Positions 1 to 43,619 of a DNA stretch of 55,431 bases are shown piece by piece. The notes under the pieces were generated by a model. The model worked only from the letters and a program-made list of their open reading frames with translations, was not told the DNA's origin and searched no databases. A program made the position numbers and the translations under genes. The stretch comes from Spirochaetota bacterium (GTDB lineage Bacteria; Spirochaetota; Spirochaetia; Treponematales; UBA12059), in the NCBI GenBank assembly GCA_003247225.1, contig QKAK01000162.1, forward strand, positions 1-55,431, written 5' to 3'. Within the stretch, counting starts at the first letter, position 1, and each line of letters begins with the position of its first letter.

Positions 1-1071
1 ATCCAGACGGTGGTCGACGAGTTCCAGCCGGACCTGATCGCCAAGGCGATACGGCGGGAGGTCGAGCGCGACGGCCAGGTGTTCTTCCTCCATAACCGGG
101 TGCAGAGCCTCGACGACACTATGGCCTTCATCCAGCGGCTCGTTCCGGAGGTGATGGTCGAGAAGGCCCACGGGCAGATGGACGCGCGCGAGCTCGAGGA
201 CATCATGCACCGCTTCATCCACCGCGGCTTCCACGTGCTCGTCTCGACGACCATCATCGAGAACGGCATAGACATACCGAACGTCAACACGATCATCATC
301 GACCGGGCCGACATCTACGGCATCAGCCAGCTGTACCAGCTGCGCGGGCGGGTGGGGCGCTCGGACCGGCTCGCCTACGCGTACCTGTTCTACCCGGACG
401 GGCGCGCCCTGTCGGAGCTGGCGATGAAGCGCCTGCAGATCATCTCCGACTTCACCGACCTCGGCTCGGGCTTCAAGATAGCGATGAAGGACCTGGAGGT
501 GCGCGGCGCCGGTAACCTGCTCGGCCGCGAGCAGTCCGGCGATATCTACTCGGTCGGCTTCGACCTGTACCTGAAGCTGCTCGACGAGGCGGTCGCCCGC
601 CTGTCCGACGAGGGCTACAATCCGGAGGAGGAGCCGTACCTGGAGCTCGAGTACTCGGGCTACATACCGGACGACTATATCAGCCAGCAGGCGGTCAAGA
701 TGGAGATCTACAAGAAGATCGCGTCGATCATGTCGCAGGACGACCTCGAGGGGCTGTACCGCGAGCTGGAGGACCGCTTCGGGCCGGTGCCGGAGGACGC
801 CTCGAGCCTCCTGGCCCTCGCGGAGATACGCCTCCTGTGCAAGCGCCTGTCGATCGCCTCCCTCAAGGAGCGCAAGGGCTTCGTCACCGTCGAATTCTCC
901 AAGGTCTCGAAGATATCGGTCGACAGGCTGCTCAGGCTGATGAAGGAGAGCGGGCAGAAGATACGGCTCGACCCGCACCGGCCGAACGTGATGATGATAG
1001 CGACCGGACCGATAGGGCTCAAGGAGAAGAGCGAGTTCATACGCGAGAAGCTGGCCGCGCTGGCCGGCTAG
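1..1071 (+). CDS. mfd: Transcription-repair coupling factor, C-terminal part (5' end outside window)
   Basis: Helicase motifs GQVFFLHNRV, TTIIENGIDIPN and QLYQLRGRVGRS; TRG motif DLEVRGAGNLLG; C-terminal TRCF domain. The frame is open from position 1. Confidence 0.97.
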   Translation: MQTVVDEFQPDLIAKAIRREVERDGQVFFLHNRVQSLDDTMAFIQRLVPEVMVEKAHGQMDARELEDIMHRFIHRGFHVLVSTTIIENGIDIPNVNTIIIDRADIYGISQLYQLRGRVGRSDRLAYAYLFYPDGRALSELAMKRLQIISDFTDLGSGFKIAMKDLEVRGAGNLLGREQSGDIYSVGFDLYLKLLDEAVARLSDEGYNPEEEPYLELEYSGYIPDDYISQQAVKMEIYKKIASIMSQDDLEGLYRELEDRFGPVPEDASSLLALAEIRLLCKRLSIASLKERKGFVTVEFSKVSKISVDRLLRLMKESGQKIRLDPHRPNVMMIATGPIGLKEKSEFIREKLAALAG

Positions 1072-1102
1072 CGACGAGCGGCCGCGGGCGGGCCCGGCGG
1101 CC

Positions 1103-1915
1103 TCAGGCCGGCTGGTCCGGAGCGGCCGCCGGCTTGGCCGTGAAGCGCTCGGCGAAGCGGTACTGCTCGATGATCGATACGAGCTCGGAGGAGAACTGCA
1201 GCGCGACGCGTACCTTCTGGACGCCGTTCTGCAGCCTGGCGACCGAGGCCAAGGTCCCGGCCACCGTGAACTGGAAGCTCTGGAAGAACAGCTTGAGCTG
1301 GATGGGCTTGTCCTGCTCCAGGATCGGCCCGTTCATCGGCACGAGGAAGTCGGCGGAATCGCTGGCCAGCGCGAACAGCGCCACCTTGGCCTGGGCCCCG
1401 GCGTAGCCTATCGTGCAGTAGTTGTTGTAGCCCATCGTCTTGGCCGTATCGGGGTTGATCGATATCGGCTTGCCCTTGTAGTCGTCGTACTCTACCTTGA
1501 GGCGGTCGAGCAGCATGAAGTAGTCGATGAGCGTCTGTACGAGGTCGGGCGGGCAGGGCTTGAAGGCGACGTCGATCAGCCCGATCGACTCGCGGCCTTT
1601 CATCGGGCTGACCGAGCGCAGGAGGCAGCGGGCGAATATCTTCATAGGCGTCTGGGCGCCGCCCGGCTGGAACACGAGGGTCAGGCCCGCGAGCCCGTTG
1701 ACGTACTTCTGGAAGAACGCCAGCTCCTCGCGGGAGAACGACGCGACGAGGACGGCGCCGTTCATCGACAGGCGGTACGGCACGCAGATTATTCCGTAGG
1801 TGTCGAGCTTCACCACCGTCTGGCCCGGCTTGAGGCCCATCCGGGCCTGCGCGAACGGCGTAATCGCGGCGGTCTCGTTTTGGTATTGGGCTAACAGGTC
1901 CGTTTGATTATGCAT
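1103..1915 (-). CDS. PlzA-like PilZ-N/PilZ tandem-domain protein, c-di-GMP motifs degenerate
   Basis: Length and layout resemble spirochaete PlzA (CVPYRLSM ~ GVIYSISM; FKPCPPDLV ~ FLSPAPEEI; 'ISINPDTAKTMG' linker), but RxxxR and D/NxSxxG are absent. Confidence 0.6.
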   Translation of the reverse strand: MHNQTDLLAQYQNETAAITPFAQARMGLKPGQTVVKLDTYGIICVPYRLSMNGAVLVASFSREELAFFQKYVNGLAGLTLVFQPGGAQTPMKIFARCLLRSVSPMKGRESIGLIDVAFKPCPPDLVQTLIDYFMLLDRLKVEYDDYKGKPISINPDTAKTMGYNNYCTIGYAGAQAKVALFALASDSADFLVPMNGPILEQDKPIQLKLFFQSFQFTVAGTLASVARLQNGVQKVRVALQFSSELVSIIEQYRFAERFTAKPAAAPDQPA

Positions 1916-1924
1916 GGCGATTCC

Positions 1925-1952
1925 AGTGTAACCTCCAACGCCGAATCGTCAA
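1925..1952 (-). promoter_or_regulatory. Sigma-70-like promoter of the PilZ-like gene
   Basis: Minus strand TTGACG-N16-TACACT, 9 nt before the ATG at 1915. Confidence 0.5.
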
Positions 1953-2737
1953 GATCCGCGTCGTCGTCGTCCCGCCGCCCGATCGCGCGGCGGGGCTTCC
2001 CGTTTGCCGGCCGGCTCGCCCCGGCCGACGCCGGCCGCCGATAGGAGGAACACCGTCGGCGTCTTGCCGATGCGCTCGGGCCTCGCCCTCCAGTCGGCGG
2101 CCGTCATCCTGACGACGCGCTCCTCCGGCGTGGACAGGCCGACCGCGGCGCAGAACACGGTGTCGGGGGCCAGCACCGCGGCCGCGCTGGCCGCCACGGC
2201 GTCGTTGCGGTACGGCGTCTCGATGAAGGCCTGCGTCGAACCGTGCCGCCTCGAGTCGGCCTCTAGCCCGCGCAGGGCCGCCTCCCTGCCCGCCTGGTCG
2301 GGAGGCAGGTAGCCCGAGAACGCGAATCGCTGGCCGCCGAGGCCCGACGCCATGACCGCCATCAGGATAGAGCTCGGGCCGGGCAGGGGGACGACCCTGA
2401 TCCCCGCCGCGGCCGCCTCGGCCACCAGGGCCGCGCCCGGGTCGGCGACGCAGGGGCTGCCGGCCTCGGACAGTATGGCCGCGTCGCGGCCTGCCAGCAG
2501 CGGCGCCAGCAGGGCCCGTACGTCCTCCGGCCTCGTGTGCTCGTCGAGCACGCCGAAGCTCGACGCGTCGAGCGACTCCTGCGGCATGACTCGGCATAGG
2601 AAGCGCCTGGCGCTGCGCTCGTTCTCGACCACGAAGTCCCGGATACCGGCCACTATCCTCGGTATCCTCGGGGCCAGCTCGTCCATGGGGTCGCCGTCGC
2701 CTATCGGCACCGGCACCAGGTACAGCGCGCCGCTCAC
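1949..2737 (-). CDS. SAM-dependent methyltransferase, tetrapyrrole-methylase/RsmI-like family
   Basis: Motifs LYLVPVPIG, LSEAGSPCVADPG, PLPGPSS, FxGYLP and FIETPYRN. Confidence 0.88.
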   Translation of the reverse strand: MSGALYLVPVPIGDGDPMDELAPRIPRIVAGIRDFVVENERSARRFLCRVMPQESLDASSFGVLDEHTRPEDVRALLAPLLAGRDAAILSEAGSPCVADPGAALVAEAAAAGIRVVPLPGPSSILMAVMASGLGGQRFAFSGYLPPDQAGREAALRGLEADSRRHGSTQAFIETPYRNDAVAASAAAVLAPDTVFCAAVGLSTPEERVVRMTAADWRARPERIGKTPTVFLLSAAGVGRGEPAGKREAPPRDRAAGRRRRGS

Positions 2738-3570
2738 CTGCCGCCCTCCTGGACGCTGGCCAGGAACGACATGACGTAGGCGCCGAAGCGCTCCGCCAGC
2801 CGGGCGGGGAACCCCGCCTCTATCGCTCGTTCGCCGGCGGCCTCCCGGGCCTCCTCGACGTCTTTCACGGTCAACGGCAACCTCTTTCCGATCAGCGAAA
2901 GCTCCAGGGCCCGGTCCCGCGCCAGCGTCCTGCCCGACGCGATGAGCCTCAGCTCCGATATGGTCTCTTTCTCGAAACGGGCGGCCGCGGCGAAGGTCGA
3001 CGCGAAGGCGTCCCCTTTCGTCGGCTCGCCGAGCCTATGCAGCGCGAACGCGTCCCACGGGGCGGTGGGGACGCGTATCCTGGTCAGCAGGGTAGCGGCC
3101 GGGAACGCCGGCCGGCCATCCCCGCCGACGAGGGCGTGGATACCGCTCCAGCGGGAGCCGGAGGCGTCGCGGAGCTCCACGGTCGCGTCCATGCACGCCA
3201 GCGACGGGAAGCAGGTCATGAACGCGTCGCGCGAGGCGATGTTGCCGCCGAGCGTCGCCATGTTGCGGACCGTGGCCGTGCCGACGAGCCCGATCGCGTC
3301 GCGCAGCGGCTGGAGCGATAGGCTCCTCGGCAGGGCCTGTATCGTCGCCAGCCTGACGCAGGCGCCTAGCTCGAGGTAGCGATCCGAACGGCTGACGGCC
3401 CTCAGCTCGGGTATCCTGCCCAGGTCGAGCACCGAGACCGGGGCGTCGCCGGCCCCGCCGGACGTGAGGATCAGCGTCCCGCCGGCCCAGGGCAGCGCGT
3501 CGGGCCTGCGCTTCAATACGGCGACGGCCTCGGCCATCGTCTGCGGCGCGGATACCTCGTCAACGCGCAC
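2734..3570 (-). CDS. Xanthine dehydrogenase/CO dehydrogenase family FAD-binding (medium) subunit
   Basis: WAGGT and VRNMATLGGNI FAD-binding motifs; LELGACV. Confidence 0.85.
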   Translation of the reverse strand: MRVDEVSAPQTMAEAVAVLKRRPDALPWAGGTLILTSGGAGDAPVSVLDLGRIPELRAVSRSDRYLELGACVRLATIQALPRSLSLQPLRDAIGLVGTATVRNMATLGGNIASRDAFMTCFPSLACMDATVELRDASGSRWSGIHALVGGDGRPAFPAATLLTRIRVPTAPWDAFALHRLGEPTKGDAFASTFAAAARFEKETISELRLIASGRTLARDRALELSLIGKRLPLTVKDVEEAREAAGERAIEAGFPARLAERFGAYVMSFLASVQEGGR

Positions 3571-4045
3571 GGCCGTACTTCCCGCCGAGGCTAGACTCGA
3601 GCGCGGTCCTGACCGCCCCGAGGGCGCGGGACGGCGTCACGCAACGGCAGTACACCGACGACAGGACCTCCATGATCTCCTCCTCGGACGGCCGGCTCGC
3701 CGCGTCGATCAGCGAGCCGGCGGCCATGTACATCGCCGAGTCGCAGAAGCCGCAGAGCTCGGCGCCGGCCTCGCGGAACGAACGCTCGACGGTCGCGTAC
3801 GAGTCGGTGCTCTTGAAGCCCTCGTAGGTGACGACCTCGGTACCCCGCGCCTTGAATGCGGGTACCATGCACGAGTTGACCAGGAGCCCGTCGAGGAAGA
3901 CGACGCACTTGCCGCAGACGCCCTCGCGGCAATCGCTCATCAGGCTCGTCAGGCCGAAGCGTTCGCGCAGGAGGTCGGACAGCCGCTCGAGCGGATCGGC
4001 CTTCAGGCTCACGTCCTCCCCGTTCAGGATGAATTCAACTATCAC
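3560..4045 (-). CDS. Xanthine dehydrogenase family 2x[2Fe-2S] (small) subunit
   Basis: C-x4-C-x2-C-x11-C (CREGVCGKC...NSC) and CGFC...CRC clusters. Confidence 0.92.
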   Translation of the reverse strand: MIVEFILNGEDVSLKADPLERLSDLLRERFGLTSLMSDCREGVCGKCVVFLDGLLVNSCMVPAFKARGTEVVTYEGFKSTDSYATVERSFREAGAELCGFCDSAMYMAAGSLIDAASRPSEEEIMEVLSSVYCRCVTPSRALGAVRTALESSLGGKYGRAR

Positions 4046-6104
4046 GGTCGGCGCCCTCCGATCGGCGGCAGGTCGGCAGCGAGTTCCACGGCGAATCGAG
4101 CGCCTGGCTCAGCGCGTTGGCGAACGCGGCGGGCACGAGCGAGTAGGCCAGCTCCCCGATGCCCTTGGGGTCGGCGTCGTCGTCGACGAATTCTACCCGG
4201 ATAGGCGGCGCGTCCTTGGCCCGCCAGAGACCGTACCGCCTGAAGTCGCCCGGTTCCGCCGGCCCCGCGGACAGGTCGAGGCATTCGGCAACGCAGAGGC
4301 CGAGCGCCACGGCGGCGTCGCGCTCGAGGGCCTTGGCCGCGTCCTCCGGCGACAGCAGCCTGCCGGCCTTCGCCACGATCCAGATGCCGCGCACCGCGGG
4401 GCTCGAGTCGACCGGGTCGAGCTCGACCTCCACCACGGCCGCGCCCCAGGACGAGTCCTCGAGCGGCGATTCCGGGGCGGCCCTGGACGACCTGGCCCGC
4501 TGCGTCTTCTTGACGGTGATCGGCAGCGCCTCCCTGAAGCGCTTGGACGCGAGCCCCTCGCATGCCGACCCTATCAGGCGGGTCACGACGCCGATGCGCC
4601 TCGAGAACGCGTTCGGCCCCGAGTCCGGCGTCCCGTCGGTGCTCGGCGACGCGATCTCGACGGCGTCGGGCTGGAGCCCGAGCGCGGTCGCGGCGATGCG
4701 CTTCCAGATCCTCGTTACCGAGCCCGAGCCGGGCGCCACGCTCGAGCGTACGGTCAGCGTCGAATCCTTCGACAGGGTTACCTCGACCGAGGGCGACTGG
4801 GCGTCGCGGTAGGACAGCGTAGCGGCCGGCCTCTGGGGGCCGAAGGCCAGCCCTATGCCGTAGCCGGGCGGCGACGAGGGGTCCGGCCGCCGCTTCCGGA
4901 TCAGCTCGAACGACGAACGCTTACGGGGATAGTCGCTGATGGCCAGCAGCCTGCCGCAGACGGCCTCGAGCGGCGAGCCTTTCCTGAGCGGGACGCCGAA
5001 GGTCGTATCCCCGCGCCTCGCCGCGTTCATGGCGCGCCATTCGAACGGGTCCATGCCGGCGGCGTCGGCCAGGTCCTCCGCGAGGCGCTCGACGGCGAAG
5101 GCTACCGGCCCGGTACCCAGCCCGGTAAAGGCGCCCATGGGCGGCAGGTCGGTCGAGACGGCCAGGGCCGAGACGCGTAGGGCGGGGCAGGCGTAGGCGC
5201 CGGCGACGGCCTTGGCGGCCCGTTCGACCAGCGCCGCGCCGAACGGCGCGTAGGCGCCGGCGTTGATCATGACGCTCGCGTCCATCGCTACGAGCCTGCC
5301 CGAATCGTCGAGCCCCGCCCGGTACGAGACGAGGGTCGGCGCCCGCTTGGTCGTGTACATGAAGTCGTCGGCCCTCGATAGCACGAGGAGGGCGTTCTTG
5401 CCGCTCAGCCTCGCGGCGATCGCCGCGTGGCAGGCCAGCAGCGACGGGTACCACAGCTTGCCGTCCAGGTGGGAGCCGAGCTCCGTTGTCCTGACCACCA
5501 CCTCGTCCTTGCCGACCCCGAGGGCCTGGGCTACCGCGTCCCTGGTCTGGAATGGCCATTGGGTCGACGAGAAGACGATCAGCTTATCGTAGTCGAAGCC
5601 GGCGGCCGCGCCCTGGGGCTCCGGGTAGTAATGGTCCTGGGGGCCCATCCTGTATTCGCCGTCGACCACCCGGGCGGCCTTCGCCAGCGCCGCCTCGACG
5701 GAGCCGCCCTCGGCGGCGTACGAGGCGACGACCCTCGTCGACTCGCAGGTCTCGTACCCGAACGACGCGGGCTCCTCGTCCACCCGTACCGCGGTCATCG
5801 ATACGGCCTCGGCCACCCTGAGCCGGTCCGGCCCGACTATCAGCGCCACCGGCTCGCCGCGGTACGCGACGCGGCCCGAGGCGAGGACGGGCACCGACGC
5901 TCCGATGTTATCTATCCTCGCGGAACCGGGGATATCGTCCGCCGTGACGCTACGGTAGCCCCTCGGCAGGTGCGGCACGCTGATGGAGCGTATGGTTCCC
6001 CTCGAGGCCGGCGAGCGTACCGTGCCGACGTAGACCGCGTCGAGGAGCGGGAAGTCCGACAGGCGCCCCACGGTCGCGAGGCCGCTCGTCCGGGCCGCCT
6101 TCAT
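4035..6104 (-). CDS. Xanthine dehydrogenase family molybdopterin-binding (large) subunit, degenerate
   Basis: VRSP..RG, GEPVALIV, HYYPEP, STQ, GAY and KGIGE...PAAFANAL are present; several Moco motifs have diverged. Confidence 0.85.
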   Translation of the reverse strand: MKAARTSGLATVGRLSDFPLLDAVYVGTVRSPASRGTIRSISVPHLPRGYRSVTADDIPGSARIDNIGASVPVLASGRVAYRGEPVALIVGPDRLRVAEAVSMTAVRVDEEPASFGYETCESTRVVASYAAEGGSVEAALAKAARVVDGEYRMGPQDHYYPEPQGAAAGFDYDKLIVFSSTQWPFQTRDAVAQALGVGKDEVVVRTTELGSHLDGKLWYPSLLACHAAIAARLSGKNALLVLSRADDFMYTTKRAPTLVSYRAGLDDSGRLVAMDASVMINAGAYAPFGAALVERAAKAVAGAYACPALRVSALAVSTDLPPMGAFTGLGTGPVAFAVERLAEDLADAAGMDPFEWRAMNAARRGDTTFGVPLRKGSPLEAVCGRLLAISDYPRKRSSFELIRKRRPDPSSPPGYGIGLAFGPQRPAATLSYRDAQSPSVEVTLSKDSTLTVRSSVAPGSGSVTRIWKRIAATALGLQPDAVEIASPSTDGTPDSGPNAFSRRIGVVTRLIGSACEGLASKRFREALPITVKKTQRARSSRAAPESPLEDSSWGAAVVEVELDPVDSSPAVRGIWIVAKAGRLLSPEDAAKALERDAAVALGLCVAECLDLSAGPAEPGDFRRYGLWRAKDAPPIRVEFVDDDADPKGIGELAYSLVPAAFANALSQALDSPWNSLPTCRRSEGADRDS

Positions 6105-7270
6105 GCGCCCCGAGCCCCCGCGATGGCGAGCACGGAGTCCGCGACGCGCCGAGCCGCGTCGAGGCCCATGCCCTGCCAGATCGGCAGGCTGACGGTGCGC
6201 TCGAACGTGGCCATCGCGTTGGGCATATCCTCCGGCCCGAGGCCGTAGCGCTTGGCGTAGTAGGGCATGGTGTGGAGCGGGATGAAATGCACCGACGTGC
6301 CGACGCCGCGCTCGGAGAGCGCCTCGACGAGCTCGTCCCTGGGGACGCCGCCGCGTTCAGGCAGGGTCCGCAGGGAATACAGGTGCCACGCGTGGCCCTC
6401 GCCCCTCGGCGGCAACTCGAGCCCGCGGACGCCCGAGAAGGCCTCGTCGTACAGGGCCGCGATCGCCCTTCGCTCCTCGAGGAATCGCTCGGCCTTGGTC
6501 AGCTGGACCCGGCCGATAGCGGCGAGCAGGTCCGGCAGGTTGTACTTGAACCCGGCCTCGACGACCGAATAGCGCCATGACGCCTTCTTTGCGGTGTAGC
6601 GGTCCCAGGCCGCCCGGTCGAAGCCGTGCATGCGCATCTTCTCGACGCGGGCCGCGAGCCGCTCGTCGCGCGTGACGAGCATGCCGCCCTCGCCGGTGGT
6701 TATGGTCTTGGTCGCGTAGAACGAGTACACGCCCGCGTCGCCTATCGCGCCGGCGTAGCCGTCCGCGGTCTTCGACGGGAAGGCGTGGGCCGCGTCCTCG
6801 ACGAGGGCGCAGCCGTAGCGGTCGGCCAGGGCGCGGAGGGCGCGCAGGTCGCAGGGCAGGCCTCCCACGTGGACGGCGATGACCGCGCGGCAGTTCTTGG
6901 TCGTCGCGAGGAGCCTGCCGAGTGCGTCGGGATCTATGTTATACGATCCCGGCGCCACGTCGCAGAAGACTACCTCGGCGCCCAGGTGACGGACCACCGC
7001 CGCGCTCGAGGTGAAGGTGTAGGGGCTGGTGACGACGACGTCGCCGGGGCCGATGCCGAGCGCCTCGAGCGCCAGGTGCAGGCCGCTCGTCGCCGAGTTG
7101 ACGGCCAGGGCGCGGGGCGAGCCGACGAAGCCCGCGAATTCCTTCTCGAAGGCCAGGGCCTCTGCCCCGGTGGTAAGCCACCCGGAGCGCATCACGCGGA
7201 GGACGGCTTCCTCCTCCTCGGGGCCTATGGACGGCCGCGCGAACGGGATGAAGTCAGTATTCGGGTTCAT
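6101..7270 (-). CDS. DegT/DnrJ/EryC1/StrS family PLP-dependent sugar aminotransferase
   Basis: SGWLTTG, NSATSGLHLAL, EDAAHA, SFYATKTITTGEGG (catalytic Lys) and GFKYN. Confidence 0.95.
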   Translation of the reverse strand: MNPNTDFIPFARPSIGPEEEEAVLRVMRSGWLTTGAEALAFEKEFAGFVGSPRALAVNSATSGLHLALEALGIGPGDVVVTSPYTFTSSAAVVRHLGAEVVFCDVAPGSYNIDPDALGRLLATTKNCRAVIAVHVGGLPCDLRALRALADRYGCALVEDAAHAFPSKTADGYAGAIGDAGVYSFYATKTITTGEGGMLVTRDERLAARVEKMRMHGFDRAAWDRYTAKKASWRYSVVEAGFKYNLPDLLAAIGRVQLTKAERFLEERRAIAALYDEAFSGVRGLELPPRGEGHAWHLYSLRTLPERGGVPRDELVEALSERGVGTSVHFIPLHTMPYYAKRYGLGPEDMPNAMATFERTVSLPIWQGMGLDAARRVADSVLAIAGARGA

Positions 7271-8741
7271 CGGGATGCTCCTCTACCGTGGGGATGAAGG
7301 ACCTGAGCGCGGCCCGCAGCCGCCTGCGGTTGCGGTACGCGTCCGGCCGGCCGTCGCTCTTGAAGCATACCGGCTCGAGCGCGCGCATGGCCGCCTCGAG
7401 GTCGAAGCGGGGTCCGCGCCGCTCCAGGCGATTGATCTTCGGGAATTCGGTCGCCGCGAGGCTCTCGTCGGACGAGAAGAGCCGCTCCTCGAGCCGCTCG
7501 CCCGGCCGGAGCCCGATGTACTCGATCGCGATGTCGTCGTAGGGCCTGAGCCCGGAGAAGCGTATGACCTGCTCGGCCAGCTCGCGTATCAGGACGGGCT
7601 CGCCCATGTCCAGGAGGTACGACTCGCCGCCGGCGCCGACGCCGCCGGTCTTGAGCACGAGGGAGCAGGCCTCGGGTATGGTCATGAAGTAACGGCTGGC
7701 CGCCGGGTCGGTGACGGTCACCGGGCCTCCGCGCTCGACCTGGCCCTTGAACAGGGGCAGGATGGAGCCGCGCGAGCCGAGCACGTTGCCGAAGCGCACG
7801 ACCATGTAGTGCTCCCCGGCCCCGGCCCGCTCCTGCGCGTCGAGGGCTATGCGTTCCGACAGGAATTTGGACGCGCCGTAGACGCATAGCGGCTCGACCG
7901 CCTTGTCGGTGCTGATCAGGACGAAGCGCCTGACGCCGGCCGCGAGGCAGGCGTCGACGAGGTTCCTGGTGCCGAACGCGTTGTTCTCGATCGCGGCGAC
8001 CGTGTTGGCCTCCATCATCGGCACGTGCTTGTACGCAGCGGCGTGGAACACGACGTCGGCCTTGAGCCTGCGGCAGATGTCCGTCATGTAGTCGCGGTCC
8101 TTGAGCTCGCCTATGACGGGGACGATCGCGGTGGACACGCCGACGCCGCCCGACTGCAGGCCGCGCAGCTCGCGGTCTATCTGGTAGATCGAGTTCTCCC
8201 CGTGGCCGAACAGGTACAGCCGCTCGACCCCGGCCGACAGGAGCTGCCGCGCGAGCTCGGAGCCTATCGAGCCGCCGGCCCCGGTGACGATGACGCGCTT
8301 GCCCGCCAGCCACTCGATGCTCTTCTTGAGCCCGATCGCGACGGGGCTGCGCCCGAGCAGGTCCTGCGGGTCGATCTCGCGGGCCTGGACGAGGTGGGCG
8401 TCGCCCTCGACTATCTGCGCGACGTCCGGGAGTATGCGGATCCTGGCGAAGCCGGCGCGCTTGAGCGTGAAGTACAGCTCGCGCAGCAGCTCCCTCGGGG
8501 CGCTCGGCATCGCGATGACGGCCTCGTCGGCCGGTTCCCTGGCGAGCAGGCTGACCACGTCGCGTATCGGGCCGAGCACCGGCACGCCGTCTATCCGCTT
8601 GCCGAGCTTGCCCTCGTCGTCGTCGAGGAACGCGACGATGGTGCCGAGGACGGCCTTGGCCCGGATCTCGCGCGCTATCGCGCGCCCGGCGAAGCCGGCG
8701 CCGACGATGTATATCCTAGGATTGTCCGGGGTGCTCTCCAT
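7254..8741 (-). CDS. CapD/PglF-like nucleotide-sugar 4,6-dehydratase (no N-terminal membrane domain)
   Basis: GAGFAG CoA-binding-like domain, DLLGR, TGAGGSIGSEL, HAAAYKHVP, STDKAV, YGASK, RFGNVLGSRGS and GLRPGE. Confidence 0.93.
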   Translation of the reverse strand: MESTPDNPRIYIVGAGFAGRAIAREIRAKAVLGTIVAFLDDDEGKLGKRIDGVPVLGPIRDVVSLLAREPADEAVIAMPSAPRELLRELYFTLKRAGFARIRILPDVAQIVEGDAHLVQAREIDPQDLLGRSPVAIGLKKSIEWLAGKRVIVTGAGGSIGSELARQLLSAGVERLYLFGHGENSIYQIDRELRGLQSGGVGVSTAIVPVIGELKDRDYMTDICRRLKADVVFHAAAYKHVPMMEANTVAAIENNAFGTRNLVDACLAAGVRRFVLISTDKAVEPLCVYGASKFLSERIALDAQERAGAGEHYMVVRFGNVLGSRGSILPLFKGQVERGGPVTVTDPAASRYFMTIPEACSLVLKTGGVGAGGESYLLDMGEPVLIRELAEQVIRFSGLRPYDDIAIEYIGLRPGERLEERLFSSDESLAATEFPKINRLERRGPRFDLEAAMRALEPVCFKSDGRPDAYRNRRRLRAALRSFIPTVEEHPDEPEY

Positions 8742-9276
8742 CGCTGCTAACGCTCCCTTTCGCCGCCCGGTCGAGTATCTCGAAGCCCATATCGACGAGG
8801 AACGAGTTCTCGCACATGTCCAGGCGGATCTTCGCGCGACGCTTGCGCGTATCGACCCTGACGATCAGGCCTTCGAGCCCCTTGAGCGGGCCCTCGACGA
8901 CGACGATGCGATCGTCGGCGTCGAAACGTACCTTCGATATATCGGCAACTTTCCCGAACGACATGAAATGGGCGAGCAGCCTCCTGTCCTTCTCCTTGAC
9001 CGGCCGCGGCGCGACGTTGTTCGGGAGCGCGCGCACGAAGTTCCTCGAGCCGCGCAGTATCCAGCGCTGCTCGTCGCTCAGGCGGTCGGCCTCGACGGCG
9101 ATGAAGACGTAGCCGGGGAACAGGGGGCGTACCTCGCGGCGTATCTTGCCCGCCCGACGCACGTCGAGCGCCCGTTTCGGTACCATCGCCGCGGCGTCGA
9201 GGCGCGGATCGGACGATAGCGCGTCGGCGAAATCGTCCTCTTTGCCGGTCCATACCTGTACGGCGAAATACTCCAT
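8716..9276 (-). CDS. loaP: NusG-paralog antiterminator, LoaP/UpxY-like
   Basis: YFAVQVWTGKE, PLFPGYVF NGN domain and KOW motif VVEGPLKGLEGLIVRVDTRKRRAKI. Start set at ATG 9276 behind GGAGGGG. Confidence 0.85.
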   Translation of the reverse strand: MEYFAVQVWTGKEDDFADALSSDPRLDAAAMVPKRALDVRRAGKIRREVRPLFPGYVFIAVEADRLSDEQRWILRGSRNFVRALPNNVAPRPVKEKDRRLLAHFMSFGKVADISKVRFDADDRIVVVEGPLKGLEGLIVRVDTRKRRAKIRLDMCENSFLVDMGFEILDRAAKGSVSSDGEHPGQS

Positions 9277-9280
9277 TACC

Positions 9281-9335
9281 CCTCCGTGATCGCCGTTCCG
9301 CCCGCTGAACGAACCGCGTAAGGCTATCACGAAGG
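9281..9335 (-). promoter_or_regulatory. Long 5'-leader hairpin that includes the loaP Shine-Dalgarno
   Basis: mRNA CCUUCGUGAU...AUCACGGAGG (10 bp, one G-U pair) plus inner GCC/GGC and CGC/GCG stems. Confidence 0.5.
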
Positions 9336-9377
9336 ATCGAGGGCCGGCAAGGCTGAGAGCCGAACAGACGATACGCC

Positions 9378-9405
9378 TAAATCAAGCCGCCCGCCTGGCC
9401 GATAT
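9378..9405 (+). promoter_or_regulatory. Putative sigma-28 (FliA) promoter
   Basis: TAAA-N16-GCCGATAT, 15 nt upstream of the ATG at 9421. Confidence 0.6.
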
Positions 9406-9420
9406 ACCAAGAAGAAAAGG

Positions 9421-9948
9421 ATGCGAACGATGAGAAGACTCGCGATAGCTGCTTTCATAGCGCTGGCGGCGACCGTCCCGGGCCTGGTCGCTCAGACCGT
9501 CGAGGTCTCGATGATGGAGAAGGGCGCCCCCGCGGAGGGGGCCTCGTCGCGATCGTCCGAGCTCGTCATCGCCGGCATCCTCGACGGGCTGTTCGAGTCG
9601 GGCTTCATCGCGACGAACGCCAGGCCGACGAGCGGCGACGACGCGGCGTTCGAGGCGTTCTCGCCCGGGGACGACTCGGTCGAGGGTTTCGTCGACTTCG
9701 TCATCCTGGTGCTGGCCGACTACGCCGGCGAGGCAGCCGTACCGGCCTGCAGGTTCAGGGTGCTCGGCGTGCCCGGCGGCGACGAGCTCGGCCGCGGCGA
9801 GGTCCCCGCGGCGGCGCCGGCGTCCGCGGCGGCCGACGATATAGAGGAAGCGTGCATGGCCGTCGGATCGGCCATTTCAGCCGCCTGCGGCGGCGCGTTG
9901 CGGAGCGTCAGCGCTTCGCGGAGGGATGACGGATATGAAGAGGCATAG
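9421..9948 (+). CDS. Hypothetical exported protein
   Basis: Signal-peptide-like N-terminus (RRLAIAAFIALAA); coding-like composition; overlaps the start of the next gene. Confidence 0.7.
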   Translation: MRTMRRLAIAAFIALAATVPGLVAQTVEVSMMEKGAPAEGASSRSSELVIAGILDGLFESGFIATNARPTSGDDAAFEAFSPGDDSVEGFVDFVILVLADYAGEAAVPACRFRVLGVPGGDELGRGEVPAAAPASAAADDIEEACMAVGSAISAACGGALRSVSASRRDDGYEEA

Positions 9949-12298
9949 TATCGCGTTGACGCTCGGCCTGGCGGCTCTCGTCGCCCTCGCGTCGGCTTCG
10001 TCATGGGAAGGCAGCGCGATGATGGGCGCCTACGGCGATTTCCCGTCGTCCGGCTACTACGCCGCGTGCAACTCCTTCGCGCGCAATACCTCCGTCGACG
10101 TGGTCAACCTCGAGAACGGCCGCTCGGTCACGGTCATCGTGACGCGCGGCCTCGAGAGCTCCGGCGTCTTCATGATGCTGTCGGTCGAGGCCGCGGAGGC
10201 GATCGGGCTGCAGCGGGGCGGCGTGACGAGGGTCAGGGCCTCGGAGCCGCGCAGCGCGGTCGAGCTGGCCCCTTCCTCCGGGACGAGCGCCTCGATGGAC
10301 CCCGATATCAACCCGCGCCTCCTGGCGGCCGCCGAGCTCAAGCGGCTCGGCTACGAACTGGCCCCGGCGGCTCCGTCCGCCTCCATGCAGCCGGCTGTCT
10401 CCGCCGTCCGCGTCGAGCCCGCGGCCCCGGCCGGGACCGCCCCGAAGGTCGCCGAACCGGCCGCTCCGGCCTCCTCCGCGGCCTCGGTTCCGCCCGCCGT
10501 CGTCGCCGAGGCTAAGCCTAAGGACGCCGCGCCCGCCGTCGCCGCGCCTCCGCCGAAGGCCGCCGAGCCTTCGGCCATCAGTCGCGAGGCTCCGGCCGCC
10601 GCGCCCGCGCCGAGCCGCGCGGCCATAGCCGAGCCCAAGCCGGTCGGCAAGGAAACGCCAGAATCGCTCGCCTCGTCCAAGCCGAGGCCGGTCCGCACGA
10701 TAGTACTGCCTCAGTTACCCGAACCCGATAGCCCGTCGGCCAAGGCGCCGGCGCCGGCGGCCGCTCCTGAGCCTCCCGCCGTATCGGCTCCGGAGGCGGT
10801 GGCGATGTCGCTCCCCGTGCCCGACGAGACTCCCCTGCGCGTAGCGGTCGGCGCGACCCCTAAGCGCTATGAATCGCCCGCTTCCAGGCCTGACGTGGCC
10901 GTGCGCGGCCCGTCCGCCCCGGCGGTACGCGTGCCGGCCATAGCCCTGGCGGATCCGGTGACCGTCTCCGAGGCCAGGGCGGCGGCCTTCGCGCTGTCCG
11001 CGCCTAAGCTCTATAGGCCGACAGCCGGCGCCGACCTGCGCGATCCGGTCGTTCCCTCGTCCGAAGGCGCCAGCGCGCTGGCGCTGAGCTCGCCGTCTCG
11101 CGCGTCGTACGACGGATCGTACGCCATGTACGACCCCGCCGTCCCGGACGCCGAGCCGGCGGAGGCCTTCGCCCGCGCGGCGCCCGCGTACGGCGCCGGC
11201 CGGCTCGGTCTCGAGCTGGCCTGGCCCGAGCTCGAGGCCGACGAGATACCCGAGGTCATGCTGGCCGGCCTGAGCGCGCCGGCCTACGAGATACCGGCGA
11301 CCAGCCTGGCCGAGGGCGAGATCGTCCTGCCCGCGTCGGTCGGCCCGTCCGCCCTGGCGCTCGAGACGCCGGAGTTCGGCGCCGCCGAGACCTACGTCGC
11401 TATGGAAGACGCCGAGCTAGAGCCCGAGGAAACCCCGAGCGTGGATACGCCGAGCGGCCTGGGACCCTACGGCGAGGACCTCGCGGTCGAGCTGGCCGAG
11501 GCCGAGGGGAAGCCCGAGGAAGGCCCCGTCGTCGACGTGGCCGCGGGCATAGCTCCGTTCGGCGACGAGTCGGTGGAGCTGGCCGAGGCCGGAAGGCAGC
11601 CGGCGGTCGACGAGGCGGCCGGGCTCGATCCCTACGCCGAAGGCGCGGCGGTCGAGCTGGCCGAGGCGGGAAGCCAGCCGGCCATAGACGAGGCGGCCGG
11701 GCTCGATCCTTACGCCGAGAAGGCCGAGGTGGCGCTCAGCGAGGCCGAGGCAACGGCGGCCGGCGGCCCCGAGGCGGAGGCGATGGCCGCCGGTACGCCG
11801 GTCGACGGCGCCGCCGGCGTCGCGCTGGCCGACGCCTCGGAGCATAAGCCCGAGACCGCCCCCTACGTGGCCGAGCCGGCCGAGGGGAAGGCGCCGGCCG
11901 TAGCGCTCGACTCGCCCAAGGAGTATATCGTAGCGATCGAGCCGACCGGCCCGAAGCCGCCCGCCTCGACGGCTCCGGCCGCCGAGGCCAAGCCCGCCGA
12001 GGCCAAGGCGACGGTCGCTCCGGCGACTGCAGCCCCGGCCGCGACGGTCGTCTCGGGCGCGCTCGAGAAGGGCCGTTACTATATCCAGATAGGGGCGTTC
12101 GCGAGCGAGGCGGCCGCGAAGGACGCGGCGTCGCGCCTGAGCGTAGGCTACCTGGTGCTGATCCAGCAGGCGACGAGCCGCGGCAAGGATACCTGGAAGG
12201 TGTTCATCGGCCCGCTCTCCCGGGACGAGAGCGGCGTGGCGCTCGTGCGCGTGCGCTCGATGGGCTACCGCGACGCCTTCGTCAAGAGCGGCGGCTGA
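9935..12298 (+). CDS. RlpA-like (DPBB) plus C-terminal SPOR domain protein with long Pro/Ala/Glu-rich repeat linker
   Basis: Signal peptide; 'VDVVNLENGRSVTVIV...LSVEAAEAIG' RlpA-like domain; C-terminal 'YYIQIGAF...VFIGP...GYRDAFV' SPOR domain. ATG 9935 has better RBS spacing than 9926. Confidence 0.8.
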   Translation: MKRHSIALTLGLAALVALASASSWEGSAMMGAYGDFPSSGYYAACNSFARNTSVDVVNLENGRSVTVIVTRGLESSGVFMMLSVEAAEAIGLQRGGVTRVRASEPRSAVELAPSSGTSASMDPDINPRLLAAAELKRLGYELAPAAPSASMQPAVSAVRVEPAAPAGTAPKVAEPAAPASSAASVPPAVVAEAKPKDAAPAVAAPPPKAAEPSAISREAPAAAPAPSRAAIAEPKPVGKETPESLASSKPRPVRTIVLPQLPEPDSPSAKAPAPAAAPEPPAVSAPEAVAMSLPVPDETPLRVAVGATPKRYESPASRPDVAVRGPSAPAVRVPAIALADPVTVSEARAAAFALSAPKLYRPTAGADLRDPVVPSSEGASALALSSPSRASYDGSYAMYDPAVPDAEPAEAFARAAPAYGAGRLGLELAWPELEADEIPEVMLAGLSAPAYEIPATSLAEGEIVLPASVGPSALALETPEFGAAETYVAMEDAELEPEETPSVDTPSGLGPYGEDLAVELAEAEGKPEEGPVVDVAAGIAPFGDESVELAEAGRQPAVDEAAGLDPYAEGAAVELAEAGSQPAIDEAAGLDPYAEKAEVALSEAEATAAGGPEAEAMAAGTPVDGAAGVALADASEHKPETAPYVAEPAEGKAPAVALDSPKEYIVAIEPTGPKPPASTAPAAEAKPAEAKATVAPATAAPAATVVSGALEKGRYYIQIGAFASEAAAKDAASRLSVGYLVLIQQATSRGKDTWKVFIGPLSRDESGVALVRVRSMGYRDAFVKSGG
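11573..11728 (+). repeat. Tandem 78-bp (26-aa) intragenic duplication, with more degenerate copies either side
   Basis: VELAEAGRQPAVDEAAGLDPYAEGAA / VELAEAGSQPAIDEAAGLDPYAEKAE start at 11573 and 11651. Confidence 0.9.
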
Positions 12299-39590: not shown

Positions 39591-40058
39591 ATGCGATGCG
39601 ATGCCTGCGGTTCGATCGACAGCGTATTCTTCATCAAGCCGGACGGTACGGGGGGCGAACTGCGCCTCTGCAGGCGCTGCGCGCTGGCTCGCGGCTACGC
39701 CGTCGGCGGCGACGGCGTACTGGGCGCCGCCGCGGAGCCGGAACCGGCCGACGGTCCTGAGCCCGCCTGCGGCGAATGCGGCTGGACCGCCGAACGGCTC
39801 AGGGCTACCGGCAAGCTCGGGTGTCCCGCCTGCGCGGCGACGTTCAGGAGCCTGGTCTCCGCCATGATGGCCCGGGCCGGCGCCCGCGGCTCGTACGACG
39901 GCAAGGTGCCCAGGGCCATGCCTTCGTCCCGCGACGCCGACGGATCCCGGGCGGCCATGGCGCTATCGCTCGAGCGGGCCGTCGCCGAGGAGGATTTCGA
40001 GACCGCCGCCTCCATCCGGGACCGGCTCCGCGCCGCCGCGGCCAAGGCCAGGCCGTGA
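39591..40058 (+). CDS. mcsA: McsA-like protein (four CxxC motifs plus UVR domain)
   Basis: CDAC, CRRC, CGEC and LGCPAC; EEDFETAASIRD. Preceded by TTTCAA-N17-TATAGT-N6-ATG. Confidence 0.85.
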   Translation: MRCDACGSIDSVFFIKPDGTGGELRLCRRCALARGYAVGGDGVLGAAAEPEPADGPEPACGECGWTAERLRATGKLGCPACAATFRSLVSAMMARAGARGSYDGKVPRAMPSSRDADGSRAAMALSLERAVAEEDFETAASIRDRLRAAAAKARP

Positions 40059-41096
40059 CGCTGCAAGGCCCCGCCTCGATGCCGCCTCGGCTCGGCGACC
40101 ATCCCGAGTACGACGTCGTGGTCCGATCCTACGTTCAGGCGGATCGCAACATGGTCGGAACCCGCTTCCCCCATGCCCTAGGCTCGGACGAAGCCCGCGA
40201 TTCGCGCGCTAGCCTCGGCGCTGCCGCGAGGGCCTGCGGCTACGATGTCGCGAGGGTCGGCGACCTGGACGCCCCGTGCCGCTCGAACCTCGCCGAACGG
40301 GAGCTGTACTCGAGGCCGTACCTGCTCGACGACGACAACCTGGCCGCCCTGAAGCGCGATAGCGCCGCATGGCTGGCGGTCAACGACGCGAATCACCTGT
40401 CGATGCGCGCGGCCCTGCCAGGCCTGGACCTGGAGGCCGCCTGGGACATCGTGTCGGCGGCCGACGACCAGCTGTCCGATTGCCTCGGCGACCGGCCCTG
40501 GGCCTTCGATGCGGGCTTCGGCTATATCATGTCCGAGGCGTCGCGCTGCGGTAGCGGCCTATCCGCGCGCGTCACCGTGCACGCGCCCGGCTTGGCGATA
40601 TCCGGGCTTGCCGAGACCGCCTTCAAGCGGGCGATGGAGGCGGGCTTCGTCGTCTCCGGCTCGTACTCGAGCCTGGCCGCCTCGGGCGGCTCGCTGTTCG
40701 ACCTGTCGCTGCCGTACGCGCGCCGCGATCCCGAGCGCGCCGCGCTCGGGCGCCTGTCGTCGGCGGCCAGGGCGATAGCCGAGTACGAGAGGCGCGCCAG
40801 GGCGGAGTTGCTCTCGGCCAGCCCGTGGGACATACTCGATACCATCGGGCGCGCCGCCGGCAAGGCGGCCGGGGCCAGGCTGCTGTCGCGAGACGAGGCG
40901 GCCGATATATGCTCCGGGCTCAGGCTCGGGCTGGCCTTAGGCGTCCTCGAGGGGCTGAGCCTCGAGGCGGCGACGGACCTGTGGCCGGCGCTGCGGGTCA
41001 AGCCCGCCCAGGCCGACGGCGAACCGGAGGCGGCGCGCAGGGCGACGAGCCTTAGGCTCGCGGTAGCGGGACTACGATTTTCGCAGGGGTACATCG

Positions 41097-41104
<8 letters not shown>
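40055..41104 (+). CDS. McsB-like ATP:guanido phosphotransferase, catalytic motifs degenerate
   Basis: Lies between mcsA and clpC; DRN...RFP, VN...HL, AFD..FGY, GSGL...V..H.PGL, E..AR and LRLG are present. Confidence 0.8.

Positions 41105-43619
<2,515 letters not shown>

Follow-up and report, generated by a model that had tools for sequence, protein, structure and literature searches.

A LoaP-headed spirochete operon that joins predicted flagellin-sugar genes to a xanthine dehydrogenase-like trio kept independently of molybdenum cofactor biosynthesis genes

The window analyzed here is a 55,431-nucleotide stretch of contig QKAK01000162.1 from a Spirochaetota bacterium (assembly GCA_003247225.1; genome G000 hereafter), and its subject is an operon of seven minus-strand genes (positions 1949-9276) that encode a LoaP-type NusG paralog, a CapD-type nucleotide-sugar dehydratase, a DegT-type aminotransferase, a trio resembling the subunits of xanthine dehydrogenase (XDH), and an RsmI-like methylase (MT). 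The trio comprises an XDH-like large subunit (XL), a 2Fe-2S subunit (XS), and a FAD subunit (XM). On balance, and with modest confidence, the locus is interpreted as one LoaP-headed operon of separable modules, in which CapD and DegT would open the route to a flagellin sugar, the trio would work independently of the molybdenum cofactor (Moco), and MT would be an accessory member.

Organization of the Operon

Protein families were assigned by Pfam and NCBIfam profile scans with the cut-offs of the models, and the gene order LoaP > CapD > DegT > XL > XS > XM > MT was taken from open reading frame (ORF) coordinates and the upstream sequence. The genes are as follows.

8716..9276, minus strand: loaP, LoaP-type NusG paralog, 186 aa, first gene of the operon (NF033641, 141.4 bits; NGN and KOW domains)
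7254..8741, minus strand: CapD/PglF-type nucleotide-sugar 4,6-dehydratase, 495 aa, soluble (Polysacc_synt_2, 3.7e-106)
6101..7270, minus strand: DegT/PseC-type pyridoxal phosphate (PLP) aminotransferase, 389 aa (DegT_DnrJ_EryC1, PF01041, 4e-116)
4035..6104, minus strand: XL, XDH-family large subunit, 689 aa, with an apparently dismantled Moco site (MoCoBD_1, 4e-58)
3560..4045, minus strand: XS, small subunit, 161 aa, with both 2Fe-2S Cys sets (Fer2 and Fer2_2)
2734..3570, minus strand: XM, FAD-binding subunit, 278 aa (FAD_binding_5, 4.7e-30)
1949..2737, minus strand: MT, RsmI-like TP_methylase paralog, 262 aa, apparently an accessory member (TIGR00096, 87.8 bits)

Successive genes overlap by 26 (LoaP/CapD), 17 (CapD/DegT), 4 (DegT/XL), 11 (XL/XS), 11 (XS/XM), and 4 nt (XM/MT), in agreement with a first-pass annotation of this DNA, which had described seven minus-strand genes overlapping by 4-26 nt. 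Hydropathy analysis gave no transmembrane-like segments in LoaP, CapD, DegT, XL, or XM and marginal ones in XS (1 window) and MT (3 windows); no 19-residue window of CapD came up to 1.6. The best explanation is that the operon products are cytoplasmic and that the genes are translationally coupled. The absence of glycosyltransferase, acetyltransferase, XdhC, and Moco genes, likewise claimed at first pass, holds for the scanned ORFs of the window (12 proteins from the first 13.5 kb and, beyond 13 kb, 33 of 36 ORFs, all but three short ones).

A Xanthine Dehydrogenase-Like Trio Without a Canonical Molybdenum Site

Besides its MoCoBD_1 match, XL gives a partial match to MoCoBD_2 (profile positions 24-131 of 283) and scores 31.2 bits on Ald_Xan_dh_C, the cut-off of which is 31.3; its best PDB matches in a profile search are solved XDHs, with R. 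capsulatus XDH at 7e-67. The XDH-like subunits all lie far below the NCBIfam equivalog cut-offs (e.g., pucD, 181 bits vs. 783.65).

An alignment of 28 operon-type (clade) XL sequences with eight canonical ones (Brachyspira-like, f20, and f34 XDHs and four paralogs from G000) locates the divergence. The glycine loop GG(G/A)FG(G/A)K is present in 8/8 canonical and 0/28 clade sequences, and the FRGFGxPQ, MGQG, GPT(V/A)AS, and GQxEGG motifs, conserved in the canonical set, are replaced in all 28 members of the clade. In the bovine and R. capsulatus XDH structures, these four motifs and the loop (GGGFGGK) are Moco contacts. The glycine loop has given way to a loop of the clade's own, HLDGK(L/I)W(Y/F)PS, which in the window XL reads HLDGKLWYPS (residues 212-221); by HMMER, the window's ELGSHLDGKL aligns with RMGGGFGGKE of R. 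capsulatus XDH. The column of R. capsulatus Glu232, fixed by means of the E232Q variant chain 2W55, is occupied by Leu217 in the window and by Leu, Ile, or Val in 27/28 clade sequences. The equivalent of Arg310 is Arg254, which is kept in the window XL and not in all clade members, and Glu730, the catalytic base of the R. capsulatus enzyme, aligns with Glu651, also kept in the window XL; over the clade (n = 28), the catalytic-base column holds Glu in 16 sequences, Asp in 7, and Thr, Arg, or Asn in 5, with Thr in the copy from a Treponema pallidum-like genome. XL is degenerate at its predicted molybdenum site, and the loss of five presumed Moco-contact motifs across the clade bears out the earlier description of the complex as degenerate and XDH-like.

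The redox cofactor ligands are mostly retained. All eight 2Fe-2S Cys are found in the window XS and in 20/22 aligned orthologs; the T. pallidum-like XS lacks the four Cys of the N-terminal cluster, and the XS of genus g22 lacks one Cys of the second cluster. The FAD motifs GGT and T(L/I)GGN of XM are conserved in the alignment.

In a quick maximum-likelihood tree of 36 rows (midpoint root for drawing only), the 28 operon-type sequences form one group against the eight canonical ones (SH-aLRT 100). Canonical spirochete XDH loci adjoin genes for XdhC, xanthine permease, carbamate kinase, carbamoyltransferase, amidohydrolase, and MobA-like proteins, which is a purine-fermentation context. Because of this one-clade tree and the purine context of its canonical relatives, the trio looks like a single ancient offshoot of a purine-fermentation XDH. 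G000 also encodes four canonical XDH-family large subunits with intact GGGFGGK-type loops, and its MoaC and MoeA genes lie together on another contig (C31, C54, C163, C221, and C138 carry the canonical XDHs and the MoaC/MoeA pair).

Compared with known three-subunit XDHs and molybdenum hydroxylases (R. capsulatus XDH and B. subtilis PucCDE), the trio has the same layout of large, 2Fe-2S, and FAD genes and the same Pfam domains, most of its members keep the eight Cys and the FAD motifs, and its clade is sister to the canonical sequences. It differs from canonical XDHs in carrying HLDGK(L/I)W(Y/F)PS in place of GGGFGGKE, in having lost the other four Moco motifs, in being fused into an amino-sugar operon, and in occurring in genomes without Moco biosynthesis genes; unlike canonical loci, it has no XdhC, permease, or purine-catabolic neighbors beside it.

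Independence From Moco Biosynthesis and Purifying Selection

The first-pass annotation had suggested checking co-occurrence of the trio with Moco biosynthesis genes. A full-length XL match is present in 41/41 genomes (40 relatives and the window's own genome), and 26 of the 41 have MoaC, MoeA_N being found in exactly these 26. The 15 genomes without MoaC and MoeA, all of which carry the trio, include four single-contig assemblies (G026, G030, G036, and G038) and seven others with a completeness of at least 95%. Mob_synth_C, the C-terminal domain of MoaA, was found in 0/5 genomes tested, among them G049, the closed, T. pallidum-like genome of 1,139,633 bp. The trio is independent of Moco biosynthesis genes.

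The ratio of nonsynonymous to synonymous substitution rates (dN/dS) in the closest pair, the window and locus L002, is 0.155 for XL, 0.089 for XS, 0.105 for XM, and 0.104 for DegT, and the medians over pairs with dS < 2 are 0.178, 0.138, 0.176, and 0.098, respectively. The trio is under purifying selection and is not decaying.

Conservation of the Linkage

A gene-neighborhood survey of Spirochaetota, also suggested at first pass, covered approximately 20 kb around the XL match in 20 genomes of six families, with genes located by tblastn. XL-XS-XM is contiguous in 20/20 of these diverse loci of the order; DegT lies directly upstream of XL in 17/20, CapD is in the locus in 17/20, and MT follows XM in 13/20. 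The exceptional loci are L025 (the trio alone), L024 (CapD-XL-XS-XM), and L031 of genome G039 (LoaP-XL-XS-XM-MT). Outside the order and within the class, 5/10 loci carry CapD-DegT-XL-XS-XM, and one carries LoaP-XL-XS-XM. The linkage is conserved and ancient; since it recurs across a whole bacterial class, the arrangement is far beyond chance.

Order-wide, 295/301 genomes match the XL profile at E <= 1e-40, which is an upper bound on orthologs; the profile E-value alone was rejected as an identifier of orthologs, because canonical XDHs score ~1e-140. A search with a three-sequence alignment yielded six loci, five from Treponema and one from Treponemataceae, T. pallidum not being among them, and the ESM Atlas yielded only "conserved hypothetical XDH family protein" clusters, from Spirochaetota.

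The G049 locus consists of an ABC sugar transporter, then CapD-DegT-XL-XS-XM, then a convergent sigma-54 activator, a DUF4015 protein, and a PilZN3-PilZ protein. This order agrees with the run TPASS_0079, TPASS_0081 ("xanthine dehydrogenase"), TPASS_0083 (glycosyl hydrolase), and TPASS_0086 (PilZ) among the T. pallidum annotations in the accessible part of the source (PMC4403809). The capD-aminotransferase-XDH-like order that the first-pass annotation had attributed to T. pallidum is thus present in G049, matching those annotations, and the operon has apparently been kept even in the tiny genome of the syphilis agent.

Several loci depart from this plan. In family f5 (L029:12487-18974, L032:1561-7406, and L025:12435-18507), the operon continues past XM with a helix-turn-helix protein, a 3-dehydroquinate-synthase-like enzyme, and a protein of ~508 aa that matches no Pfam family; next come UDP-glucose dehydrogenase or phosphoenolpyruvate (PEP) mutase plus a phosphonopyruvate-decarboxylase-like gene, and then an ABC exporter and GT2, so that the f5 locus looks like a longer surface-glycan or phosphonoglycan operon. 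A Treponema denticola-group locus, L030, has an S41 peptidase gene between CapD and DegT (L030:6276-7583), and in G030, another T. denticola-group genome, LoaP-CapD lies ~8 kb from DegT-XL-XS-XM.

CapD and DegT as Probable Entry Steps to the Flagellin Sugar

The best equivalog for CapD is PseB, at 178.8 bits (cut-off 407.75), and DegT scores 347.6 bits on the PseC model (cut-off 423.5). G000 and G049 each have a single strong Polysacc_synt_2 (CapD) gene and a single strong DegT gene, both in the operon. Flagellin and a strong NeuB-type synthase are each present in 40/41 of the relatives, both being missing only in G039. Within the genus of that genome (g22), flagellin is found in 0/5 genomes, a CapD ortholog in 1/5, and NeuB in 1/5, and a second flagellin-less lineage, genus g101, has flagellin in 0/2 and NeuB in 0/2. 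Likewise, CTP_transf_3, the CMP-sugar synthetase family, is present in 6/6 flagellated and 0/4 flagellin-less genomes. CapD/DegT, the nonulosonic-acid synthase, and the CMP-sugar synthetase therefore occur together in flagellated genomes and are absent together in 4/5 genomes of g22 and 2/2 of g101. Given this co-variation with flagellin, NeuB, and the CMP-sugar synthetase across two independent losses, CapD and DegT most likely catalyze the two opening steps toward the pseudaminic-type nonulosonic acid of Treponema flagellins. The first-pass reading of the operon as a flagellin-sugar pathway is accordingly upheld in part: the product of CapD and DegT is likely a flagellin sugar, and it is the membership of the trio in the same pathway that lacks support.

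Like PseB/PseC and PglF/PglE, the spirochete pair consists of a Polysacc_synt_2 4,6-dehydratase followed by a DegT aminotransferase, with PseB and PseC as the best-scoring equivalogs, and it resembles PseB/PseC further in co-varying with a NeuB-type synthase, a CMP-sugar synthetase, and flagellin. Unlike PseB and PseC, both spirochete proteins fall below the equivalog cut-offs, the remaining pathway is scattered in the genome, and the operon holds no acetyltransferase; the dehydratase has an N-terminal domain of the PglF/CapD type but no membrane segment.

O-glycosylation of FlaB flagellins in T. denticola has been summarized in print, the glycan, of 450.2 Da, carrying the N-acyl group 2-methoxy-4,5,6-trihydroxyhexanoyl, of 176 Da, on a nonulosonic acid; in its accessible part, this account assigns neither the trio, LoaP, nor the operon to the pathway (PMC13439194). 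The accessible part of another source reports that synthases of T. pallidum and T. denticola were assayed for PseI/LegI function (10.1101/2022.03.25.485807).

The PseG model gave only sub-cut-off matches. In G049 (L071:7886-11678) and G030 (L072:5359-8876), a NeuB-type gene is followed by proteins of 137 aa and 650-680 aa without a Pfam match, which are candidates for the flagellin glycosyltransferase. The open frames that hold the CMP-sugar synthetase domain are 862 aa long in G049 (G049:C1:302366-303028) and 881 aa in G030 (G030:C1:861040-862491); the 881-aa frame also gives a weak PseG-like match, which suggests a fused multi-step nonulosonic-acid enzyme in G030.

Separability of the Modules

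Two flagellin-less genomes, G039 and G434, keep LoaP-XL-XS-XM (and MT, in G039) without CapD/DegT, and the flagellin-less lineages that retain the trio lack CapD, DegT, NeuB, and the CMP-sugar synthetase. The reverse is seen in the flagellated genome G062 (94% complete), where LoaP-CapD-DegT is followed by a convergent nrdD, NeuB and the CMP-sugar synthetase are present, and XL has no match anywhere in the genome. G084 and G523 are likewise trio-less. The trio is separable from CapD/DegT, and because of G039, G434, G062, G049, and the genomes without MT, every proposed partner of the trio is dispensable in some lineage. The first-pass placement of the trio within the CapD/DegT pathway finds no support in this pattern, as the trio persists without CapD, DegT, NeuB, and flagellin and is absent from a flagellated genome.

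MT matches TP_methylase, and its only NCBIfam family match is TIGR00096 (RsmI), at the 87.8 bits listed above (cut-off 167.9). All 5 genomes tested have a full-scoring RsmI at another position, the copy of G000 (G000:C160) reaching 193.9 bits. MT thus shares the TP_methylase fold with RsmI, the 16S rRNA C1402 2'-O-methyltransferase, and is unlike it in scoring below the cut-off and in coexisting with a separate full-scoring RsmI; by these scores, it is best described as an accessory second RsmI paralog. Searches of the T. denticola-group and T. pallidum-like genomes (2 of the 5 tested) did not turn it up, and its standing as a general member of the system, as originally listed, does not survive. 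A role for MT as the maker of the methoxy group of the flagellin glycan was considered and rejected, since MT was not found in the T. denticola-group genome.

LoaP, the Upstream Region, and Expression

The lead gene had been called an antiterminator paralog at first pass, and it passes the NCBI LoaP model, NF033641, with 141.4 bits (cut-off 125), while the NusG, UpxY, and RfaH models score far lower. The start of loaP is the ATG at 9276, behind GGAGG; the GTG at 9330, an alternative ORF start, is probably not the start of the gene. In Bacillus, LoaP is a NusG paralog that antiterminates long biosynthetic operons, and the family is present in Spirochaetes, according to the accessible part of the source (PMC7858274). 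A LoaP ortholog heads the cluster in 16/20 diverse loci, two further loci being cut by contig ends. In the 1.14-Mb genome G049, the only match to LoaP is a sub-cut-off, NusG-like one of 72 bits, and the trio is kept without LoaP in both G049 and G152.

A putative promoter was read by eye upstream of loaP:

9321..9329, minus strand: inferred extended -10-like promoter element TGnTAnnnT, ~45 nt upstream of the loaP start

This element was not listed by a sigma-70 scan; among the 16 orthologous loci, most show by eye a similar TGnTAnnnT element 10-55 nt ahead of loaP. By the same reading, several species would have a 5' untranslated region (UTR) of only about 10-20 nt, with little space for the leader element that LoaP reportedly requires. 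A TATCGG motif is also conserved by eye, nearer the divergent gene (window 9277-9440, minus strand, and the equivalent regions of L013-L032). A terminator and promoter scan came up empty within the operon, with no intrinsic-terminator-like sites in 1949-9276, and an Rfam scan of window positions 1-12000 gave only a chance miRNA match. Taken together with its counterpart in Bacillus, the operon's LoaP is alike in passing the NCBI model and in being the first gene of a biosynthetic operon; it is unlike it in that no intrinsic terminators were found inside the operon, the 5' UTR seems by eye too short for the leader element in several orthologous loci, and the locus does without LoaP in G049 and G152.

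RNA-library contigs (X17 and X18), from two libraries, cover the operon with an identity of about 90-99% and run across the LoaP/CapD, CapD/DegT, DegT/XL, XS/XM, and MT/PilZN3 junctions. One such contig also crosses the divergent intergenic region, and libraries of this kind can hold DNA.

Neighboring Genes

The conserved downstream neighbor of the operon is a PilZN3 gene:

1103..1915, minus strand: PilZN3-domain protein, conserved downstream neighbor (PilZN3, 6.8e-9)

PilZN3-domain proteins are of the c-di-GMP receptor type. The gene is adjacent to the operon, after MT, in 10/20 loci, and in G049 a PilZN3+PilZ gene lies ~5 kb from the trio (L043:17324-18268). Because a promoter-like site was found ahead of it at 1952-1925 by the sigma-70 scan, the PilZN3 gene probably forms a separate transcription unit. 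Divergent from the operon, on the plus strand at 9421-12298, are genes for a secreted protein of 175 aa that matches no Pfam family and for an RlpA-like DPBB+SPOR protein, a pair that adjoins loaP in many loci across the class. The remainder of the 55-kb window is housekeeping (LigA, ArgS, L21, Obg, FtsH, CheR, CheB, ClpC, and SecA); on its plus strand, at 39776-43619, a McsB-like guanido kinase followed by a ClpC-type ATPase makes up an ordinary protein-quality-control pair.

Weighing the Explanations

In the interpretation favored here, CapD and DegT, as the first module, would convert UDP-GlcNAc to a UDP-4-amino-4,6-dideoxy-HexNAc. From this precursor, two enzymes encoded elsewhere, a NeuB-type synthase and a CMP-sugar synthetase, would make the nonulosonic acid of pseudaminic type with which Treponema FlaB flagellins are O-glycosylated. 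The second module, XL-XS-XM, would descend from a purine-fermentation XDH that lost its Moco site and rebuilt the loop while mostly keeping FAD and two 2Fe-2S clusters. It may act as an autonomous, Moco-independent flavin/iron-sulfur complex on a substrate, or sense one, that is probably related to sugars or the envelope, and it would be co-expressed with the first module without being an obligatory step of it; LoaP would drive this co-expression of the flagellin-glycan entry steps and the trio. That the trio is autonomous in function is probable. A bolder extension, which we regard as unlikely in its entirety, is that the trio is the first xanthine-oxidase-family complex to work without Moco, its former pterin and dinucleotide pocket, now rebuilt (HLDGKLWYPS), binding a nucleotide-sugar or related metabolite and FAD and 2Fe-2S feeding a new reaction needed by the Treponema/Spirochaeta class.

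Several observations weigh against this interpretation. The co-variation of CapD/DegT with flagellin rests on only two independent flagellin-less lineages, and CapD is of the PglF/CapD type and below the PseB cut-off, so that the stereochemistry of its product may follow from either retaining or inverting chemistry, the inverting 4,6-dehydratase reaction giving the L-altro sugar. The XL profile also matches canonical XDHs at ~1e-140, so that the count of 295/301 overstates verified orthologs. In most genomes across the class, DegT and XL overlap or are separated by no more than a few bases, and the f5 trio lies mid-way in longer glycan operons, both of which fit a shared pathway better than mere co-regulation. 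The flagellin-less representative of g22 has the fastest-evolving copy of the trio (end branch 2.44 vs. a median of 0.89), and this copy has also lost clade motifs and one Cys; this might reflect a relaxation of constraint once the glycan pathway was gone, and would then argue for a functional link. Finally, the RNA-library contigs are only compatible with expression, because one of them spans the divergent intergenic region, and they are not counted as proof of co-transcription.

Some of these observations lend weight to the possible, though rather unlikely, alternative of a tailoring role for the trio within that glycan pathway, as was proposed at first pass (a glycan-tailoring redox partner); FAD/2Fe-2S electrons at the rebuilt XL site would modify the UDP-amino-sugar or build the unusual N-acyl group of the flagellin nonulosonic acid. 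Such a role would account for the tight DegT-XL adjacency across the class (direct in 17/20 loci), for the position of the f5 trio between CapD-DegT and further glycan genes (the 3-dehydroquinate-synthase-like enzyme, UDP-glucose dehydrogenase or PEP mutase, the ABC exporter, and GT2), for the trio among sugar genes even without CapD/DegT at L025, and for the faster evolution and motif loss of the trio in flagellin-less g22. To our knowledge, moreover, the biosynthesis of the N-acyl group of the T. denticola glycan has not been assigned to any enzyme. Against it, the trio and LoaP are kept in two flagellin-less lineages without CapD, DegT, NeuB, and CTP_transf_3; the trio is absent from flagellated G062, which has LoaP-CapD-DegT, NeuB, and CTP_transf_3; the T. 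pallidum-like XS is without the four Cys of its N-terminal cluster, so that the usual chain from FAD to the active site is broken; and MT was not found in a genome of the T. denticola group, for which the methoxy group was described.

A pseudoenzyme role, in which the trio would keep only the XDH fold and serve as a non-catalytic scaffold or as a sensor of redox state or metabolites, is improbable. The loss of the Moco motifs, a catalytic-base column that varies (Glu 16, Asp 7, and Thr/Arg/Asn 5 of 28, with the T. pallidum-like copy in the last group), the loss of different 2Fe-2S ligands in different lineages, and the survival of LoaP plus the trio as the minimal conserved unit in two reduced lineages would all suit such a role, but purifying selection acts on all three subunits, the eight Cys in 20/22 XS proteins and the kept FAD motifs argue for a working redox chain in most species, and LoaP is absent from G049 and G152 despite the trio. 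Far less probable still is an ordinary molybdenum hydroxylase of purines, aldehydes, or N-heterocycles that merely sits beside sugar genes. The family HMM matches, the solved XDHs as best PDB matches (7e-67), the presence of MoaC and MoeA in G000, and the substrate-site Gln and Arg equivalents and Glu651 kept in the window XL speak for it; however, the five Moco-contact motifs are absent in 28/28 clade members, the trio is present in 15/41 relatives without MoaC and MoeA and in G049 without Mob_synth_C, the equivalog scores are far below their cut-offs (pucD, 181 vs. 783.65 bits), and no XdhC is adjacent, unlike in canonical spirochete loci.

Significance

A literature search with little coverage of subscription papers found no paper on the operon or on a Moco-free XDH relative. 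The printed T. pallidum annotation of the trio consists of labels such as "hypothetical / xanthine dehydrogenase" in the accessible part of the source (PMC4403809), and the trio is apparently one of the conserved yet unexplained gene sets of the pathogenic treponemes. The present analysis contributes the cross-tabulation with Moco genes, the origin from a purine-fermentation XDH, and the co-variation with flagellin together with the separability of the modules. These comparative results turn a vague idea of "glycan tailoring" into clear predictions for knock-outs in a tractable treponeme.

If the assignment of CapD and DegT is true, enzymes would be in place for the first two steps toward a glycan on which flagellar assembly in T. 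denticola depends. Likewise, an XDH-fold complex that lacks Moco and is yet under selection would widen the known range of this enzyme family, and a new reaction of the trio, if there is one, would have been important enough to survive genome reduction in the agent of syphilis.

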